Origin: a virus
IMG/VR virus record: IMGVR_UViG_3300035698_016988
Coordinates: 1 to 64,000 of that record
DNA length: 64,000 nt
Direction: 5' to 3' (one strand)
The notes beneath the pieces are model-generated. The model was not told where the DNA came from. It saw only the letters and a program-made list of their open reading frames with translations, and ran no database searches. The translations under genes and the position numbers were made by a program. Numbering within the stretch: the first letter of the stretch is position 1; each line of letters starts with the position of its first letter. Below, one piece after another: positions 24,024 to 32,127 of the stretch.

Positions 24024-24893
24024 ATGGCACAAAAACGCGCCTATCTAAATAATCGAGACCTCTTAAAAGAAATTCATACATCAAAACGATCTTATTGTGC
24101 TTTCACGGACGAAGATTACTTTGACTATGACTTTATCGTTGATGACATTAATCGCATGAGTGATGCTCGTTGTCGTGAAGCAAGAAAAGCCAGAGCAGAA
24201 CGGTTAACCCAAATCGCTGTTCAGAAAATGATTGCAGAAGAAGGCATCTCAGCGAAAGCCGGTAACAAACGAGCCGACGAAGTTAGGGTTCACACTAGGA
24301 ATATTAATCTTGAAGACGTGGTTGTTCGTGAAATGACACATGAACACGTTCCGCAAGAAGAAAACAAGTCAGGCAAATTGGTTTATCCAAAGCTGAAATT
24401 CCCACCATTCAAACATTTTGCTTATATTGACGGCAAGTGGACTGAAGTTCTACGTTCCCATTGGGAAGGTGGATTCGACAACGGTTATTTCAAACAAGAC
24501 CAAGGCAGAGTAACTGACAAACTAGCAAAAATGATTATGATGCTGGTAGAAAGAATCAGTCACAAAGGAAACTACCGAGGGTATTCATTCATTAATGATA
24601 TGAGATCCGAAGCACTTGTTCATCTGTCTGATGTTGCCTTGAAGTTCGACGAATCAAAAGGCGACAACCCATTTGCTTTCTATACCACAATCATTAATCA
24701 CTCGTTCAAAGGATTTTTGAATTTTGAGAAGAAACAACGTACAATCAGAGATGACTTGATGATTGCTGGAGGATATTCTCCTTCGCATACAGCACAAGTC
24801 GAGCATGAAATGTCAATCCGTCTAGCTGATATTGATGAAGAAAACGAAAAAGCTTATCAAGAAAGACAAGATAAGGAGATGCAAAATAGGTGA
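24024..24893 (+). CDS. late-transcription sigma factor, T4 gp55-like
   Basis: YLNNRDLLKEI, NYRGYSFINDM and KFDESKGDNPFAFYT motifs; synteny with gp47/gp46. Confidence 0.88.
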   Translation: MAQKRAYLNNRDLLKEIHTSKRSYCAFTDEDYFDYDFIVDDINRMSDARCREARKARAERLTQIAVQKMIAEEGISAKAGNKRADEVRVHTRNINLEDVVVREMTHEHVPQEENKSGKLVYPKLKFPPFKHFAYIDGKWTEVLRSHWEGGFDNGYFKQDQGRVTDKLAKMIMMLVERISHKGNYRGYSFINDMRSEALVHLSDVALKFDESKGDNPFAFYTTIINHSFKGFLNFEKKQRTIRDDLMIAGGYSPSHTAQVEHEMSIRLADIDEENEKAYQERQDKEMQNR

Positions 24894-25912
24894 CTGAACA
24901 TTTATTTGAAAAAGCCGTAGCATTCACAGATATGCATCTGGGTCTGCGTAATAACTCGAGAGAACACAATAACGATTGTCAAGAATTTACAGAATGGATG
25001 ATTAAGGAAGCAAAAGCAAGAGGAATCAAGACTTGCTTTTTCTTAGGTGATTATCATCATGTTCGTTCTTCACTCAATATTTCAACTCTTTGTTACTCAA
25101 CCTTTCTTTTACGGATGCTATCCGATAATTTCGACGACGTTTATTTTATCGTTGGCAACCACGATATGTTCTACAAAGAAAAAAGAGAAATCAATTCAAT
25201 TGATTATGCCAAGGATATTCCGAATGTTCACTTGATTAATGAACCAGTTTGTATGGGCCAAGTTGGATTAGTTCCTTGGGTCTTAAAGGACGAATGGCAA
25301 AAGATTTGCAACATGGATGCAAAATATCTGTTCGGTCACTTTGAGTTTCCTTCATTCTTGTTGAACAGTAAAGTATTGATGCCCGACCACGGTCAATATC
25401 CAATCGGAGATTTGAAAAAGTTCGACTGGGTTTTCTCTGGTCACTTCCACAAAAGGCAAAGAAGACAGAACGTCCAGTACATGGGTAACTGCTTTCCGCA
25501 TGACTTTAGTGATGTGAACGAAGAAAAAGATCGAGGAATCATGTTTCTAGATTGGGACGGAAAGCCGGAGTTCAAAGCATGGCCGGGCACTCCTAAATAT
25601 CGATACGCAGGTATTGCAGATCTAATTGAACGACCAGATCAATACTTAGGCGATAAAACTTATGTTCGCGCTACACTTGACATAGACATTGATTTTGATG
25701 ACGCATCGTTTGTTCGAGAGACTTTGTCAAGTCTTTACAATCTTCGAGAGTTTACTTTCTTACCAAAGAAAAGAGAACAGGAAATCTTAGAAGTCGGAAA
25801 TGAAGATGTTGACTTTGAATCTGTTGATTCAGTAGTGATCGGACAATTACAAAACGTCGATTCGAATACATTTGATTCGAACCTTTTAATCTCAATTTAT
25901 CAGGCCCTATAA
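24890..25912 (+). CDS. recombination nuclease, T4 gp47/Mre11/SbcD-like
   Basis: DMHLG, GDYHH, GNHD and SGHFH metallophosphoesterase motifs. Confidence 0.93.
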   Translation: MTEHLFEKAVAFTDMHLGLRNNSREHNNDCQEFTEWMIKEAKARGIKTCFFLGDYHHVRSSLNISTLCYSTFLLRMLSDNFDDVYFIVGNHDMFYKEKREINSIDYAKDIPNVHLINEPVCMGQVGLVPWVLKDEWQKICNMDAKYLFGHFEFPSFLLNSKVLMPDHGQYPIGDLKKFDWVFSGHFHKRQRRQNVQYMGNCFPHDFSDVNEEKDRGIMFLDWDGKPEFKAWPGTPKYRYAGIADLIERPDQYLGDKTYVRATLDIDIDFDDASFVRETLSSLYNLREFTFLPKKREQEILEVGNEDVDFESVDSVVIGQLQNVDSNTFDSNLLISIYQAL

Positions 25913-27739
25913 ATGATTCAATTTGAAAAAATTATTCTAAAGAACTTTATGAGTTTCGGTAACGTACCGGAATCTATTCCGCTTGATCGTGATCCGTTGA
26001 CGTTGATCTTAGGAAGAAACCAAGACAAAGGTGAAGACTCAGGTGAAAGAAACGGTGTCGGTAAATCCAGTATCGTTATGGCGCTGCACTTTGCTTTGTT
26101 CGGTATTTCGGTTGGTAACAAAATTAAGAAGCCGAGGCTAATCAATAACATCAACCAAAAGAATCTTGAAGTAACTCTGAAGTTTACAATCGGAACGAAC
26201 TCTTACACGATTAAAAGATTCCGTAAACCAGAGAAGCTAGAGTTTTACGTCGACGATCACTTGGTAAATGACCAGGGCGGTGACGAAGGCCAAGGCGAGA
26301 TGGGAAAGACCCAAGAAGAAATCAATCGTGTAGTCGGCATCACTCCTGATATGTTTAACCAATCAATTTTCTTGTCAGTCATTACTGAGCCGTTCTTGCT
26401 ATTAGGATCCGGCAAGCAACGTGAATTGATCGAAGAACTTCTAGGAATTACTCAATTATCTGAGAAATCAACTACTCTCAAAGAAATGCTAAGAGAAACA
26501 AAGACTCAACTTGATAAAGAAACGTTCAAAATCAAAACAGTCGAAGAGACTAACGCCAGGGTTAGAACCAATCATGAAAAGTCAATTCAAAACTTGATGT
26601 CCAGAGAGACACGTTGGGAGAATGAGCATAGGTTCGAACTCGACGGGATTGAAAAAGAAATCGCTGAATACAGTGAGATCAGTATCAACCAAGAAATTAA
26701 AAATCACGAACTCCTAGCTGAATGGCTAGAAAAGAAAGTGGCACAAGATCAATTATTGTCTGAACTCGAAAGAACTAATATCGAAAAGGGTCGTCATGAT
26801 CGAGCAAAGCAACAAGCTTTCAAGCGTTTAGAAGATTTGGCAATTGATTTAGAATCAGCTGAAGAACAAAAATGCCCTACTTGTGGTCAGGACGTGCATG
26901 ACGATAAACACGATTCTGTCCTTGGCGGCATCGTTGAAAAAGTTGAGTTTTACGAAAAGCAACTCAGAGAAGAAGACGATAACCTGGCACAAATTGAGGA
27001 ACGCTTACAAGAACTAAGCGAACTAGAATTTGACCTAGGTAAAAAACCTGAGGTATTCTATACCGAAGTTAAGGATGCATACAAACACAAAAGTACGCTG
27101 AAATCTTTAAAAGATGGATTGAAATCTGAGAAATCAAAAACCAATCCTTACTCTGAGCAAATTGCTTCCCAACCAGATGCACCGTTGCAGGATATCAATT
27201 ATGAATTAAAGGATGATCTCATTCAACTTAGAGACCACCAAGAATTCCTTTACAAACTCTTAACCAGCAAAGACTCATCAGTTCGAAAACATATTATTAA
27301 CCAGAACATCAGTTACTTGAATGCTCGCTTAGGTATGTATCTCGAGAAACTAGGGTTGCCACATGAGGTTGAATTCTTGAATGACCTCAGCACTGAAATC
27401 ACAATGCTCGGTAATCAATATGACTTCTTGAGTCTATCTGCGGGTGAGCGGGCACGCTTGACTTTGGGACTTATTTTTGCTTTCCGTGATGTTTGGGAAT
27501 CACTAAATCAAACAATGAACATCTTCTTTGTTGACGAATTTCTCGACACGGGGTTAGATACAGCGGGTGTAGAATCCGCGCTTAAGACCTTGAAACAATT
27601 GGGTCGAGAACGCGCAAAGAACATTTTTATCATATCACACCGTGAAGAGTTAATTTCAAGATGTTCAAATGTATTAACGATTGTAAAAGAAGGCGGCTTC
27701 AGTCAACTCGAATGGCAAAGAGACGAGGAAGAAGTATGA
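25913..27739 (+). CDS. recombination ATPase, T4 gp46/Rad50/SbcC-like
   Basis: Walker A NGVGKS, zinc hook CPTC, signature LSAGE, Walker B FFVDE, ISH. Confidence 0.95.
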   Translation: MIQFEKIILKNFMSFGNVPESIPLDRDPLTLILGRNQDKGEDSGERNGVGKSSIVMALHFALFGISVGNKIKKPRLINNINQKNLEVTLKFTIGTNSYTIKRFRKPEKLEFYVDDHLVNDQGGDEGQGEMGKTQEEINRVVGITPDMFNQSIFLSVITEPFLLLGSGKQRELIEELLGITQLSEKSTTLKEMLRETKTQLDKETFKIKTVEETNARVRTNHEKSIQNLMSRETRWENEHRFELDGIEKEIAEYSEISINQEIKNHELLAEWLEKKVAQDQLLSELERTNIEKGRHDRAKQQAFKRLEDLAIDLESAEEQKCPTCGQDVHDDKHDSVLGGIVEKVEFYEKQLREEDDNLAQIEERLQELSELEFDLGKKPEVFYTEVKDAYKHKSTLKSLKDGLKSEKSKTNPYSEQIASQPDAPLQDINYELKDDLIQLRDHQEFLYKLLTSKDSSVRKHIINQNISYLNARLGMYLEKLGLPHEVEFLNDLSTEITMLGNQYDFLSLSAGERARLTLGLIFAFRDVWESLNQTMNIFFVDEFLDTGLDTAGVESALKTLKQLGRERAKNIFIISHREELISRCSNVLTIVKEGGFSQLEWQRDEEEV

Positions 27740-28621: not shown

Positions 28622-29131
28622 TTAAATCTTTTTCTTGTAAAGTTTGACCAATTCTTTTTTGGTCTCTTTTCCAGAAAGTTCTATATTATTATGTTCAAGG
28701 AGGATCGTTATTTGGTCCTCCTTTTTCATATTCTTAAATTTGGTAACTTTTTTATTCTTATGTGCTGGATGTTCGTAATCAGTTTGATTAGATTTGAGAT
28801 AAGATAAATGATCTTCCAGCCATCCAATATAATCAGTTTCTAGGCTCACGTGCCCAGATCGTCTAAAACGATAAAATAAAATTCCTTCCAATAAATTGCA
28901 TCTTCTGCACAAAACCCCACGGACTAAACCCGAATCGTGATTGTGGTCAACGTGGCGGTTCGTATTATCTTCAGTCAATAAATCTTCAGAGCAAATGCCG
29001 CATTTATAATCTTGTGCGACGAGCAACTCATCACGAATTCTTGCGATATCTTTTGATTTAAGAATTGTAACCAAGGGATCTCCATTTGAATTAATGTCAG
29101 GTAATGCCACAAGTGACCCATCTCCCAGCAA
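28622..29131 (-). CDS. endonuclease VII-like Holliday junction resolvase (T4 gp49-like)
   Basis: QDYKCGIC...VDHNHDSGLVRGVLCRRCNLLEG; true start probably slightly downstream. Confidence 0.88.
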   Translation of the reverse strand: MLGDGSLVALPDINSNGDPLVTILKSKDIARIRDELLVAQDYKCGICSEDLLTEDNTNRHVDHNHDSGLVRGVLCRRCNLLEGILFYRFRRSGHVSLETDYIGWLEDHLSYLKSNQTDYEHPAHKNKKVTKFKNMKKEDQITILLEHNNIELSGKETKKELVKLYKKKI

Positions 29132-29170: not shown

Positions 29171-29178
29171 TATAAATA
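29171..29178 (+). promoter_or_regulatory. T4-type late promoter TATAAATA
   Basis: Exact gp55 consensus upstream of the SD and ATG at 29204; a divergent GATAAATA serves the endo VII gene. Confidence 0.7.
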
Positions 29179-29203
29179 ATAGAAACAAAACAGGAGACAC
29201 CCA

Positions 29204-30082
29204 ATGAGCGAGATCAGGCTAAAGAATGCCCTTTCACAAATGAAAAACGAAGCTGTTTCGGAACGTAAAAATCATATCCGAAAGCATCGAAATCAACAAG
29301 GTGAGGCATGGTCAGTTGAATGCCAACTGGCTGACCCGCAAGACGCCAGACGAATGAACGGATTCATGCAACATGAATTGGATCTATATAATCAAATCCT
29401 AGAATATTTCAACCCAACTGCAAGAACTGCTCCAGAGATCTTCTCGGCTTTTACCGAAGAGCATATCAATTTGTTTGCATTCTTAGCACAGCACGGTATC
29501 GATATTCGAAGAATACGAAAAAGCAATCTACCAGATGTTATGAAAGAATTCGAAACGATTCTATTCGACGGTTCTATTAGTGAAAGAATGAAAATCCTAA
29601 TGGAATCAGTAGGCGGATCTTATTCGATGCTTGAATCAACCAAGAAAGCAATGGCTCGTGAGCTAATGAAATTCTATGCTGAGGACGCAAGAGTACGTCA
29701 GCAAAGAATGCCAAAAGGCGGTGACCAAGAATTTAAAACCCCACCTAAGTCTTTGGCACAGCAAACCCCAATCAGCAAGCGTCACTTGCAGATGAAAAGA
29801 GACCAAGTCAAAATCAAATTCAACGAAAAAGAAGACCGTTCGGAAATTTCGATCCCTTATTGTTCTTCACCGATTTACGTGAAAGAAGTTGATCTATCAG
29901 ATCGTAATTCTTGGAATATTATGATCGTTCACCAAACACCAAATGTAATGGTCCTACCAGGATCACCTTGGGTTTTAGACTTCAGGGGCATCAAGAACGA
30001 TTACTTGGTTGATTATTTAGACAACCGTAACGATAAGTCAGGAGTATTCTGGCATGCCAAATCAAACAGGAGTGGAAGATAA
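29204..30082 (+). CDS. hypothetical protein, candidate RuvC-less TnpB/Cas12f-like (WED+REC) nucleic-acid-binding protein
   Basis: The gene itself is solid (CAGGAG SD, late promoter). The homology rests only on visual pattern similarity (...LYNQILE..., ...ISIPY..PIYVK...). Confidence 0.45.
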   Translation: MSEIRLKNALSQMKNEAVSERKNHIRKHRNQQGEAWSVECQLADPQDARRMNGFMQHELDLYNQILEYFNPTARTAPEIFSAFTEEHINLFAFLAQHGIDIRRIRKSNLPDVMKEFETILFDGSISERMKILMESVGGSYSMLESTKKAMARELMKFYAEDARVRQQRMPKGGDQEFKTPPKSLAQQTPISKRHLQMKRDQVKIKFNEKEDRSEISIPYCSSPIYVKEVDLSDRNSWNIMIVHQTPNVMVLPGSPWVLDFRGIKNDYLVDYLDNRNDKSGVFWHAKSNRSGR

Positions 30083-30203
30083 TGTCACAACTTTTAGAAA
30101 CTTGCTTTTGCTTAGTGCAGGCCTAGTAATGAATCCAAATAACGGAAATATGGTTATTATTTTCTTAACTCGATATTCGGAAGAGCCAACGGACGCCGAA
30201 TAA
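30054..30203 (+). CDS. possible 49-aa ORF overlapping the 3' end of the upstream gene
   Basis: AGGAG 9 nt before the ATG; MPNQTGVEDNVTTFRNLLLLSAG... Confidence 0.25.
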   Translation: MPNQTGVEDNVTTFRNLLLLSAGLVMNPNNGNMVIIFLTRYSEEPTDAE

Positions 30204-30208
30204 TCTTA

Positions 30209-30237
30209 TTGACGCTCGCAGTTTAGATATATAGTAT
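30209..30237 (+). promoter_or_regulatory. sigma70-type promoter facing the non-coding region
   Basis: TTGACG-N17-TAGTAT. Confidence 0.65.
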
Positions 30238-30243
30238 CAGATA

Positions 30244-30960
30244 GTTAGAACATAGTGACTCAGATATGGTGGTATACCACCGACGGAAGGGATGCCTAGG
30301 TATCAGGAACGTCGTAAAACCCGCGTCACACGGGACCGCAATGAAAACTTCCAGGAAGAGGCACCATCCGAACTGGGACAGACGGCGGAATATTTACATG
30401 CACTCAATGAATCGGCGAGGTATGTGATAAGGATTAAGATTTTAATCTGAAATAGGTCGCGGATGCTGATGGCATCTTTGAAAATGAAGAACCATATCCA
30501 AAAATTAGAAGGCACAAATTAGGCACAACACTACCATAGGCAAAAAAATCAGGTGAAATGAATACCGCAAGGCACAAATCAGGGCGACGACCCGTAGGCA
30601 CAAGGATTTGGATCATGCTCTGTCTCGAGACACTGACAACATGAACTCCGTTAGAAACTTTGAAGGTATGAAGTAATAACGGACGCCGGTTTTGGCTTAG
30701 CCACAAAACCTAGAGCGATAGGCGGGATTCGGAAACCCCTCGTTTGTATAAACTCTACATACCCTGACCATACGATGTACCATACGGAAATCGTCCTTTT
30801 GCCCTATTTCCAGTTACTTGGAGGCGGGGGCAAAAGGACTGGACTCACCCAACGGAATGTGTCTTGTTCAAGCCTCATCCAATAGACTAATATGACTTGA
30901 AATGGTTTTAATGATGTTTCTAGAAAAAGTTACCAATGAAAACTGTTAGGTTTTCATTAG
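30244..30960 (+). ncRNA. putative large structured non-coding RNA of unknown family
   Basis: No + strand ORF of 60 aa or more; own promoter; many hairpins including a 12-bp stem 30793-30804/30828-30839; AGGCACAA repeats. Ends are approximate. Confidence 0.62.
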
Positions 30961-31013: not shown

Positions 31014-31223
31014 CTATCGTGAGGCTTTCTTCATTGCTCTATGATATTCTTCGTAGGCATCAACCATTGATTGTCTATCTTCTCTGGTAGAGAGCCACAA
31101 TTCTGTCCAACCAATTCGGCCTTCCATATACATCATTATCTGGCTAATCTCTGACCGGATAGCTTTTGCCTCATCTTCGATTTCAGTGAGGAAACCGGAA
31201 ATTCCCTCATCGTCTAGGAGCAA
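31014..31223 (-). CDS. C-terminal extension of the hub/tail-assembly chaperone, probably made by -1 frameshift
   Basis: TTG start without SD; the frame is open back to the slippery heptamer at 31235-31241. Confidence 0.7.
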   Translation of the reverse strand: MLLDDEGISGFLTEIEDEAKAIRSEISQIMMYMEGRIGWTELWLSTREDRQSMVDAYEEYHRAMKKASR

Positions 31224-31228
31224 AAGCT

Positions 31229-32071
31229 TTAGTCGAAAAAATTTGAGGGATCAAATGTTAAATTTTCTTCGACATATTCATGTTGACAATGAGTACAAAC
31301 ACAATTCTGTGAATTCGGAACGCCGGCTTCATTAAGGCTTTTGATTTTAAATCGGATATTGTCTACTTCTTTTGTATCAAGTTCTTTGACCATAGGTTCA
31401 ATATGTTTTCTTTCTTTAACGAAAATTCCGTCAGGGGTTTGAACTCCCATTACTGAATCACAAACCAACTCGAAGTTCATCTTAACCATTTTGTCAAAAC
31501 TATTTGCAAAAGTTCTAATCTTTTCTTCGTCGGCCATTTCTTCTCGGTCGACTAATTGCATAATTTTTGTTTGTTCGAACTGAGCTAGGTTTGACTTTGT
31601 GCTGGTCTTAAAATCGTGCGGTTTCATTACCAAAGTCAAACCGTTTGATAATTCGATAGAGTTTTCGTCATCTAAGAAAGTCATTGTATCGATAGCCATT
31701 CGAATTGATCGGTCAAATTCGTTTATTTCATTACATTCAGGGCAAGTTGATTTAAAATCAATTGTATCTCCGTAAGACGCAAATCTAATTGCTAGCATCA
31801 AAGCGGTTACATCAGGAACAACCAACATTGAAGGATCTCCTTTAATTCCCGGAACACATGATTTGATAACGTCCAACATTCCTTGACCGTTTAGCAAGGC
31901 GTCTGGGCTTTTTAATGAAAGGTCATCAGATGCGGTCATAGCCTTAATATCGAGTTCATCGTTATTATTCAATTCCAAAAAGTTCGGAGGATAGAATAAT
32001 CCTCTTGAAGGTAAAGGAATTGAAATTTTAGTCTGGCGACCATAACCGGCGAGTGGATTTGCTGTCTGTGA
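31229..32071 (-). CDS. baseplate hub assembly / tail chaperone (T4 gp26/gp51-like)
   Basis: NPL...LPSRG.FY, MTASDD..LKSPDALLNG, CPEC and CTHC zinc motifs, NFF terminus; start placed at MSQTANPL. Confidence 0.8.
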   Translation of the reverse strand, partial: SQTANPLAGYGRQTKISIPLPSRGLFYPPNFLELNNNDELDIKAMTASDDLSLKSPDALLNGQGMLDVIKSCVPGIKGDPSMLVVPDVTALMLAIRFASYGDTIDFKSTCPECNEINEFDRSIRMAIDTMTFLDDENSIELSNGLTLVMKPHDFKTSTKSNLAQFEQTKIMQLVDREEMADEEKIRTFANSFDKMVKMNFELVCDSVMGVQTPDGIFVKERKHIEPMVKELDTKEVDNIRFKIKSLNEAGVPNSQNCVCTHCQHEYVEENLTFDPSNFFD

Positions 32072-32127
32072 CATCGGGTTCTCCAAATTGGTAAATAAAA
32101 CTACTAGACTTATTTATTCGAGGAATC

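Follow-up and report, generated by a model that had tools for sequence, protein, structure and literature searches.

A likely relative of the TnpB/Cas12f recognition half in a T4-like jumbo phage and the large structured RNA encoded next to it

The 64,000-nucleotide stretch of viral DNA analyzed here (the window; positions 1 to 64,000 of the IMG/VR record IMGVR_UViG_3300035698_016988) is part of a 74.6 kb contig from an uncultivated T4-like myophage. Its plus strand contains, at positions 29204..30082, a gene for a 292-aa protein that resembles the wedge (WED) and REC domains of TnpB, Cas12f and Fanzor and has no counterpart of their nuclease half. Homology of this protein with the recognition half of TnpB/Cas12f/Fanzor is likely, and we hold this view with considerable confidence. 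The protein belongs to a new, previously unannotated family that is derived from, or shares ancestry with, the TnpB recognition half, and its gene is followed on the same strand by a large, apparently structured RNA. A more specific proposal is that the protein is a domesticated, nuclease-free relative of TnpB/Cas12f/Fanzor that consists of WED and REC only and pairs with the adjacent RNA as a non-cutting DNA-binding ribonucleoprotein (RNP). In our estimate, this proposal stands evenly poised between being right and being wrong.

Fold, family and synteny of the protein

The AlphaFold2 model of the protein, computed from an 82-sequence alignment without templates, had a predicted local distance difference test score (pLDDT) of 91.0 and a predicted template-modelling score of 0.85, with all five models at 90 or higher. 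We compared this model with 48,161 PDB representatives using VIA-align. Ranks 1-28 were all occupied by TnpB, Cas12f, Fanzor2 or Cas12 chains (Z 10.4-5.6; 160-212 residues aligned with a root-mean-square deviation of 3.3-5.8 Å), and the chain at rank 29, with a Z of 4.7, was unrelated. The 28 chains comprise AsCas12f, dCas12f, RhCas12f, ISDra2 TnpB, mimivirus Fanzor2, Cas12p, ISFba1 TnpB, Cas12m2 and 20 further Cas12 or TnpB chains. Model residues ~29-264 were always superimposed onto the N-terminal WED+REC part (chain residues about 1-175/210; 2-174 in ISDra2 TnpB), and the alignments began at model residues 29-33, which correspond to residues 1-5 of TnpB/Cas12f. Foldseek returned the same set with a probability of 0.97-0.99. 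A middling model obtained from a 7-sequence alignment (pLDDT 70.5) had already given TnpB/Cas12 chains exclusively as its top Foldseek and VIA-align matches. The ESM Atlas produced a poor model of its own (pLDDT 0.40), and its matches were meaningless.

A prediction made earlier from the DNA letters (the original prediction) had likened the protein to the WED/REC half of TnpB/Cas12f and had named AlphaFold modeling followed by structural comparison as a check. The outcome was as predicted, and the wedge beta-barrel is present in the model. The open reading frame (ORF) itself exists exactly as described, with a good ribosome-binding site.

The proposed order of strand, helices and strands was also borne out. 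An N-terminal beta-hairpin (residues 25-42; 29276..29329, plus strand as for all segments of the gene), delimited by DSSP of the model and by the structural alignments, forms the first part of the WED domain. It is followed by a helical REC-like insertion (residues 45-166; 29336..29701) and, beyond a low-complexity linker, by the six-stranded second part of the WED beta-barrel (residues 194-261; 29783..29986), both delimited by the model, structural alignment and conservation. A WED barrel split by an N-terminal helical REC insertion is a feature of the TnpB/Cas12f superfamily, and the AlphaFold2 model, VIA-align and Foldseek all place it in this protein. The remaining residues 262-292 (29987..30079; pLDDT 57-81) contain a conserved YLxxYxD motif and a basic tail, align to no solved chain and occupy the place where the RuvC-I segment of TnpB would begin. 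The end of the protein, ~30 residues past the last wedge strand, is hence where it had been anticipated. The predicted absence of a zinc finger holds as well, as the protein has two cysteines in total and no CxxC pair.

Sequence evidence for the relationship comes from the profile of the same 82 sequences. When it was run against all PDB sequences, the single match below E 0.01 was Parasitella Fanzor1 (E 4.5e-4). The match spans profile positions 20-117, i.e. the strand and first helix of the WED-N/REC region, and aligns the conserved YN of the family with the 'YFN' of Fanzor1. The original prediction had compared this YN with the 'VYN' of TnpB, and it is indeed part of a nearly invariant motif, ELxxYN, which supplies E58 and N63 in the first long helix of the REC-like insertion. 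The other nearly invariant positions are K192-R193-H194-x-Q196, W237, H243-Q244, W256 and Y267. The KRHxQ motif (192-196) begins two residues before the six-strand block, and the block holds W237, H243-Q244 and W256.

The family is large. When 1.84 billion cluster representatives (50% identity clusters) were searched exhaustively with the family profile, at least 192 were related at E<=1e-3, with 64 of these reaching E<=1e-30, and the 150 relatives listed out of the 192 are 110-345 aa long. Because 192 representatives match its profile, the ORF at 29204-30082 is a real gene and not a chance ORF. A word-indexed search yielded six relatives with 54-64% identity, and the conserved motifs persist down to ~20% identity. 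Searches of PHROGs, NCBIfam and PADLOC with the protein and its relatives stayed at noise level, and tblastn with three members found none in 50,697 GenBank phage records. One 24%-identical member occupies the end of a short contig (3.3 kb), with no DNA downstream of it, that was assigned to a Candidatus Pacearchaeota metagenome-assembled genome (L024, JAWALV010000044.1; we designate the compared loci by L and the genomes by G). This is probably a mis-binned phage contig, although it might come from an archaeal virus.

We searched for the missing half of the nuclease in the surrounding DNA. The OrfB_IS605 RuvC model PF01385 had no match in the six frames, read through stop codons, of the 74.6 kb contig. 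The TNB zinc ribbon model PF07282 had none in the six frames of the window contig (G000), of the 296 kb contig G001, which carries a 29%-identical homologue, and of G002, while the control genomes were positive. Longer, fused relatives, sought in the range of 568-2000 aa, were not found either, though this counts as weak evidence. Since the RuvC and TNB searches were negative, the protein is short and longer relatives were not found, the nuclease half is, as far as these sequences tell, absent and neither split off nearby nor mutated in place.

The gene occupies a fixed position. In the window and in L001, L002, L008, L014 and L015, i.e. in every locus with enough flank, it is convergent with a baseplate-hub gene (phrog_150), and these six syntenic loci span 25-64% protein identity. 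On the upstream side of the window, L002 and L008 we find gp46/SbcC, a Holliday-junction resolvase, or both. The start codon, ribosome-binding site and frame are intact in every locus. G001 has one copy of the gene, and together with the fixed position this speaks against residence in a mobile insertion sequence, which would be marked by TnpA, transposon ends and multiple copies. The gene is a vertically inherited, domesticated phage gene and not an insertion sequence, as it keeps one place in uncultivated T4-like jumbo phages, with the gp46/47 and resolvase genes on one side and the baseplate hub on the other. The original prediction spoke of a nuclease-free remnant. The first part of this description is correct, as neither RuvC nor TNB was found, but the word 'remnant' implies decay and should be replaced by 'domesticated derivative', because the family is large, conserved, syntenic and under selection. 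The family could in principle also represent an ancestral-like free module. Loss of the nuclease is nevertheless more economical, since full-length TnpB is so widespread.

Structured RNA downstream of the gene

The gene, which ends at 30082, is directly followed by an ORF-free stretch of ~930 bp. Most of this stretch corresponds to the core of a large, putatively structured non-coding RNA of ~620 nt and 24 helices (30245..30870, plus strand), in which there is no ORF. Three diverged loci, namely the window, L001 (the closest relative, with 64% protein identity) and L011, have the RNA on the same strand directly 3' of the gene. The ~620 nt are alignable among the three at ~70% DNA identity, and the adjoining proteins at 59-64% amino-acid identity. 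The RNAalifold prediction has 25 helices with 149 pairs in total; 24 of the helices belong to the core and one is a terminator hairpin. On this consensus structure 93.9% of cells are paired, compared with 83.7% in shuffles. Doubly changed pairs number 41, compared with 15.1±3.0 in shuffles (0/500 reach 41) and 4-10 in slid controls, where both the covariation and the structure tested on it derive from the same three sequences. Many G-U pairs fit the plus strand. Its thermodynamic z-score is modest (-1.6), as are those of the ORF-free stretches of 1.0-1.3 kb that follow the gene in the homologous loci L002 (-1.8) and L008 (-2.9). The RNA has no match in Rfam even at E<=10, and two covariance models (R1 and R2, built from three sequences) together with nhmmer found only the three close RNAs.

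A promoter scan places a sigma-70-type promoter, TTGACG-N17-TAGTAT, just upstream of the RNA (30209..30237, plus strand). Its -35 and -10 hexamers are conserved in L001 and L011, and the spacer has diverged. At the other end, a terminator scan identified a bidirectional terminator hairpin (30933..30960, both strands) that would serve the RNA on the plus strand and the hub operon on the minus strand. This hairpin, which is helix 25 of the consensus, shows compensatory changes. The total length of the RNA is roughly 620-720 nt. Between the core and the terminator, downstream of a conserved motif, ACTCACCCAACGGAA, lies a variable 3' tail (30871..30932, plus strand) that is unalignable among the window, L001 and L011 and is a candidate guide-like or spacer segment.

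In its center, where pairing is poor, the RNA contains four copies of AGGCACAA and variants of the AGGCAAAA type (30510..30603, plus strand). All four copies of AGGCACAA in the 64 kb window sit here, and the number and spacing of the repeat units vary among the window, L001 and L011. Related TAGGC[A/T]C-type or AGGCACAA motifs are grouped shortly past the end of the TnpB-like gene in a number of loci that are otherwise unalignable: besides the four AGGCACAA copies of the window (30510-30603), there are four motifs in L002 (L002:6907-6975), two in L013 (L013:1387-1434) and one in L014 (L014:1305-1311). In L002, L013 and L014 they begin 25-110 nt past the stop codon, whereas in the window they are inside the RNA. 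Given the small counts, this clustering may be due to chance. A homology between the RNA of the window and the stretch in L002, suggested by a shared 10-mer and a shared 8-mer, was dropped, as such sharing is about what chance gives for two 1 kb stretches.

A structured RNA element is also present at the same locus in cultured jumbo phages. It corresponds to ~750 bp of conserved, unannotated sequence that separates endonuclease VII from the baseplate hub and that we aligned in five phages (L005:4908-5710, which is Serratia phage BF NC_041917.1 174402-175204; L018:1479-2264; L019:1475-2278; L020:1474-2241; and L021:1290-2040). The BF stretch matches 62 GenBank phage records. The element has an extended -10 promoter, and 45 of its 166 predicted pairs show compensatory changes. 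In Serratia BF the element is present five times, as paralogous copies near 30, 93, 174, 259 and 335 kb, all on the plus strand, and each of the three that were examined (30, 174 and 259 kb) is located in a gap of about 700-800 bp that has no genes. The BF proteins gp060, gp061 and gp348, which are encoded beside other copies of the RNA, are unrelated to the 292-aa protein family. The element has no match in Rfam, and covariance models and nhmmer found no sequence link between this GAP32-type element and the RNA of the window. The element may be a large multi-copy phage RNA not known before, or its copies may be origin-type elements.

Proposed function and alternative explanations

In TnpB and Cas12f, the WED and REC domains hold the scaffold of the guide RNA, read the target-adjacent motif (TAM) and cradle the guide-target heteroduplex, and the RuvC and TNB domains cut. 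For a protein that consists of WED and REC only, one would therefore expect binding to structured RNA, to DNA or to an RNA-DNA hybrid, with no cutting. The modeled fold suggests that an RNA- or DNA-binding activity has been retained. The protein would then be a non-catalytic nucleic-acid binder that keeps the ancestral grip of WED and REC on structured RNA and on the RNA-DNA duplex. In this phage it would pair with the adjacent 620-720 nt RNA, which is unusually large and may take over the scaffolding function of the lost nuclease lobe. Such an RNP would bind DNA, probably by forming an R-loop, without cutting it, and in its DNA-bound state it would control transcription or replication. The location of the gene among core genes and the presence of a structured RNA of ~0.6-0.7 kb that is absent from Rfam suggest an unrecognized phage RNP.

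A number of observations weigh against this proposal. The Foldseek E-values are weak (best 3.4e-3, none past 1e-3), and none of the 82 family members scanned has a Pfam match, TnpB models included. Covariance models and nhmmer found no homology between the RNA of the window and the stretches downstream of the gene in L002 and L008. In L013-L017, whose proteins have 25-28% identity, merely 140-430 bp follow the gene, and those of these stretches that were read contain a terminator or the promoter of the next gene and no large RNA. In L001, a Tad2-like anti-Thoeris gene (PF11195, E 6e-27; L001:3771-4079) stands between the protein and RNA genes. The promoter of the RNA is of the early sigma-70 type, whereas the octamer before the protein gene, TATAAATA, is of the late type, so the expression of protein and RNA may differ in timing. 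The 3' tail and the RNA have only chance-level target matches elsewhere in the 74.6 kb contig. Finally, no homologue of the protein is detectable in the whole genomes of the cultured relatives (Serratia BF, GAP32, CBB, XbC2 and 7t3), and phages of the GAP32/CBB/BF/XbC2/7t3 type have the syntenic structured RNA in spite of that. On the other side, the partnership is favored by the same-strand position of the RNA directly 3' of the gene in three diverged loci, by its conserved promoter, its covariation and its omega-RNA-like layout, and by the ORF-free stretches that also follow the gene in L002 and L008. A partnership of the protein with the adjacent RNA can reasonably be inferred, but it should be regarded as tentative and as having somewhat less than an even chance.

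Members of the family without a large RNA in L013-L017 and the structured RNA at the same intergenic place in cultured phages without the protein are what one would expect of a stand-alone DNA binder. Here, WED and REC would read a short TAM-like motif in double-stranded DNA without any RNA, the protein would act as a regulator or as an accessory factor of recombination or replication, and the RNA would be independent of it. The gene does stand beside recombination genes (gp46/47, endonuclease VII or RusA), and the clusters of TAGGC[A/T]C-type or AGGCACAA motifs after the gene could be DNA binding sites. However, their counts are small and they were found after the fact, those in the window are inside a transcribed RNA, and the same-strand, immediately 3' position of this RNA mirrors that of omega-RNA genes. 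Moreover, no WED+REC protein is known to act independently of a guide RNA, and no exception was found in the literature searched. We rate a stand-alone DNA binder as possible, though rather on the unlikely side. The resemblance could also be purely architectural, with the barrel and the helical bundle having arisen independently, for example in a late assembly or structural factor encoded near the baseplate genes. That the top 28 of 48,161 representatives come from one superfamily, have the same discontinuous topology (strand, helical insert, barrel) and are aligned in the same N-terminal register argues against such a coincidence, as do the sharp fall of the score to Z 4.7 after rank 28 and the independent sequence-profile match to Fanzor1 in the matching region. 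We consider it improbable, while noting that the sequence identity to solved TnpB/Cas12 chains is 4-11%, that a Z of about 10 is only moderately above the background typical for a VIA-align search, that the gene has a late-promoter-like octamer upstream and baseplate genes as neighbors, and that the Foldseek and Pfam results given above point the same way. The virion annotations of the cultured relatives searched are silent on a structural role, for or against, because none of these phages has a family member.

The last alternative is a decaying fragment of a TnpB insertion, i.e. a functionless pseudogene that remained after the loss of the 3' half. It would agree with a protein that stops where RuvC-I would start and with a downstream stretch that is non-coding, but this stretch is itself conserved as a structured RNA and contains no six-frame trace of RuvC or TNB. 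The 192 clusters of similar length, the motifs conserved down to ~20% identity, the fixed synteny and the start, ribosome-binding site and frame that are intact in every locus all contradict decay, and this explanation is close to refuted, with hardly any probability left to it.

The non-cutting RNP can be compared with several known systems. The likeness to TnpB (IS200/IS605 OrfB; ISDra2 TnpB, PDB 8h1j/8exa) and Cas12f consists of the WED barrel split by REC (Z 10.1-10.4 over 162-171 residues), of a structured RNA gene immediately 3' on the same strand and of the layout of this RNA, in which a conserved scaffold precedes a non-conserved 3' tail as in omega-RNA. In contrast to TnpB and Cas12f, the phage protein has neither the RuvC nuclease (RuvC-I/II/III with the catalytic D-E-D) nor the TNB zinc ribbon, its gene is immobile and has no Pfam TnpB match, and the RNA is about 3 times as long as a typical omega-RNA or single-guide RNA and has a promoter of its own. 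Fanzor1 and Fanzor2, the eukaryotic and giant-virus homologues of TnpB (PDB 9cf0, 9b0l), are similar to it by the Fanzor1 profile match and by a Z of 9.8 for Fanzor2. Unlike the phage protein, Fanzors have an active RuvC nuclease and a long N-terminal extension and occur in association with transposons.

Exapted TnpBs (flagellin-, sigma-, DppD- and SpoIIE-associated ones and TldR) keep a mutated RuvC domain, in which at most RuvC-III is truncated (PMC10691335). TldRs are RNA-guided DNA binders and repressors, and some of them are phage-borne (PMC10691335; bioRxiv 10.1101/2023.11.30.569447). The phage protein shares with TldR the immobilization of a TnpB derivative and the loss of cutting activity. 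It differs in that the whole RuvC/TNB half is missing, whereas RuvC is mutated in TldR, and in that its gene sits among the core genes of lytic T4-like jumbo phages. The 3' tail of the RNA, where a guide of the TldR type might lie, has no above-chance target match in the 74.6 kb contig. By analogy, a non-cutting RNP that is TldR-like in principle may serve as the best-supported working model.

A further version of this model places the RNP at an origin of replication. In ColE1, a structured RNA, the RNA II primer, starts replication and offers an analogy for an R-loop origin. The T4 origins oriF and oriG fire from R-loops, and oriE, which involves RepEA/RepEB, needs an early promoter and carries iterons (PMC3016281). 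An early transcript, an orientation switch and a GC-skew minimum are features associated with oriE, oriF and oriG (PMC3016281). The region of the 292-aa gene resembles them in its early-type promoter and non-coding transcript amid late genes, in the switch of the transcription strand and cumulative GC-skew minimum at the site, and in its short direct repeats, and it is these features that suggest the origin version. This likeness is drawn from sequence features alone, and, unlike in the phage studied here, extensive structure with covariation is undescribed for T4 origin transcripts. An R-loop-stabilizing WED+REC protein at a phage origin would fit the setting, but the idea is speculative. Yet more far-reaching is a new kind of RNP, derived from TnpB and free of a nuclease, in which a very large RNA would replace the nuclease lobe and with which the phage would make programmed R-loops to start replication or to silence promoters; we consider it decidedly unlikely. 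If it holds, the multi-copy RNAs of the GAP32/BF type would be variants of this device that work without a protein or with another partner.

The literature searched describes no RuvC-less TnpB and no large non-coding RNA of jumbo phages, and all exapted TnpB/Cas12 derivatives in it retain RuvC, at least in a dead form. A free-standing WED+REC protein that is widespread would demonstrate the capacity of the recognition half to work and evolve alone. This would be relevant to the assembly of the TnpB/Cas12 architecture and to the minimal size of an RNA-guided DNA binder. Neither the protein family nor the RNAs have been described, and both can be tested, which concerns the CRISPR/TnpB as well as the phage-RNA field. 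The RNA side is testable in the laboratory now, because the cultured phages GAP32, CBB and Serratia BF carry unannotated multi-copy structured RNAs at the same locus.

Genome setting and minor features

The host of the 292-aa gene is an uncultivated T4-like jumbo phage. Its gp20 portal has 47-48% identity to the portals of ~350 kb jumbo phages (Vibrio 2.275.O, Xanthomonas XaC1/XbC2, Serratia BF, Yersinia fHe-Yen9 and Erwinia pEa_SNUABM). Among those listed, the public runs that hold the stretch are all salt-lake or lake DNA metagenomes, with no RNA run, and the four that were checked over the stretch gave identical low-depth contigs with zero variants.

The neighborhood of the gene begins with the late sigma factor gp55 (24024-24893) and gp47 and gp46 (24890-27739), followed by endonuclease VII on the minus strand (28622-29131). 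On the other side of the gene and its RNA lie a small ORF and the baseplate hub, both on the minus strand (31014-32086), and beyond them a tape-measure-like protein and the gp20 portal. Between 22000 and 32000, a region that includes the 292-aa gene, the genes change from a predominantly minus to a predominantly plus orientation, and the minimum of the cumulative GC skew (-0.67 to -0.64) is reached.

The gene has an ATG start and an AGGAG ribosome-binding site 8 nt upstream (29190..29194, plus strand), which was read directly; its GGAG core is equally spaced in L001 and L011. The T4-type late-promoter-like octamer TATAAATA (29171..29178, plus strand), also read directly, is located ~25 nt upstream of the start codon. 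As it occurs in only three copies in 64 kb and is poorly conserved, being partly kept in L001 and L011, it is a weak feature. An imperfect hairpin, ATTCGG...CCGAAT, is present in 30083-30208, between the stop codon and the promoter of the RNA. Judging from its sequence, it could be a candidate terminator for the transcript of the protein gene, in which case the protein and the RNA would be separate transcription units.

In the locus L008, whose protein is 28% identical, two regions stand out (L008:2858-3873 and L008:6242-6622). In place of endonuclease VII, the resolvase upstream of the gene is of the RusA type and is accompanied by an HNH protein. On the other side of the gene, the ORF-free stretch is followed by an unannotated ORF of 164 aa and then by an RNase H gene (PF00075/PF13456).

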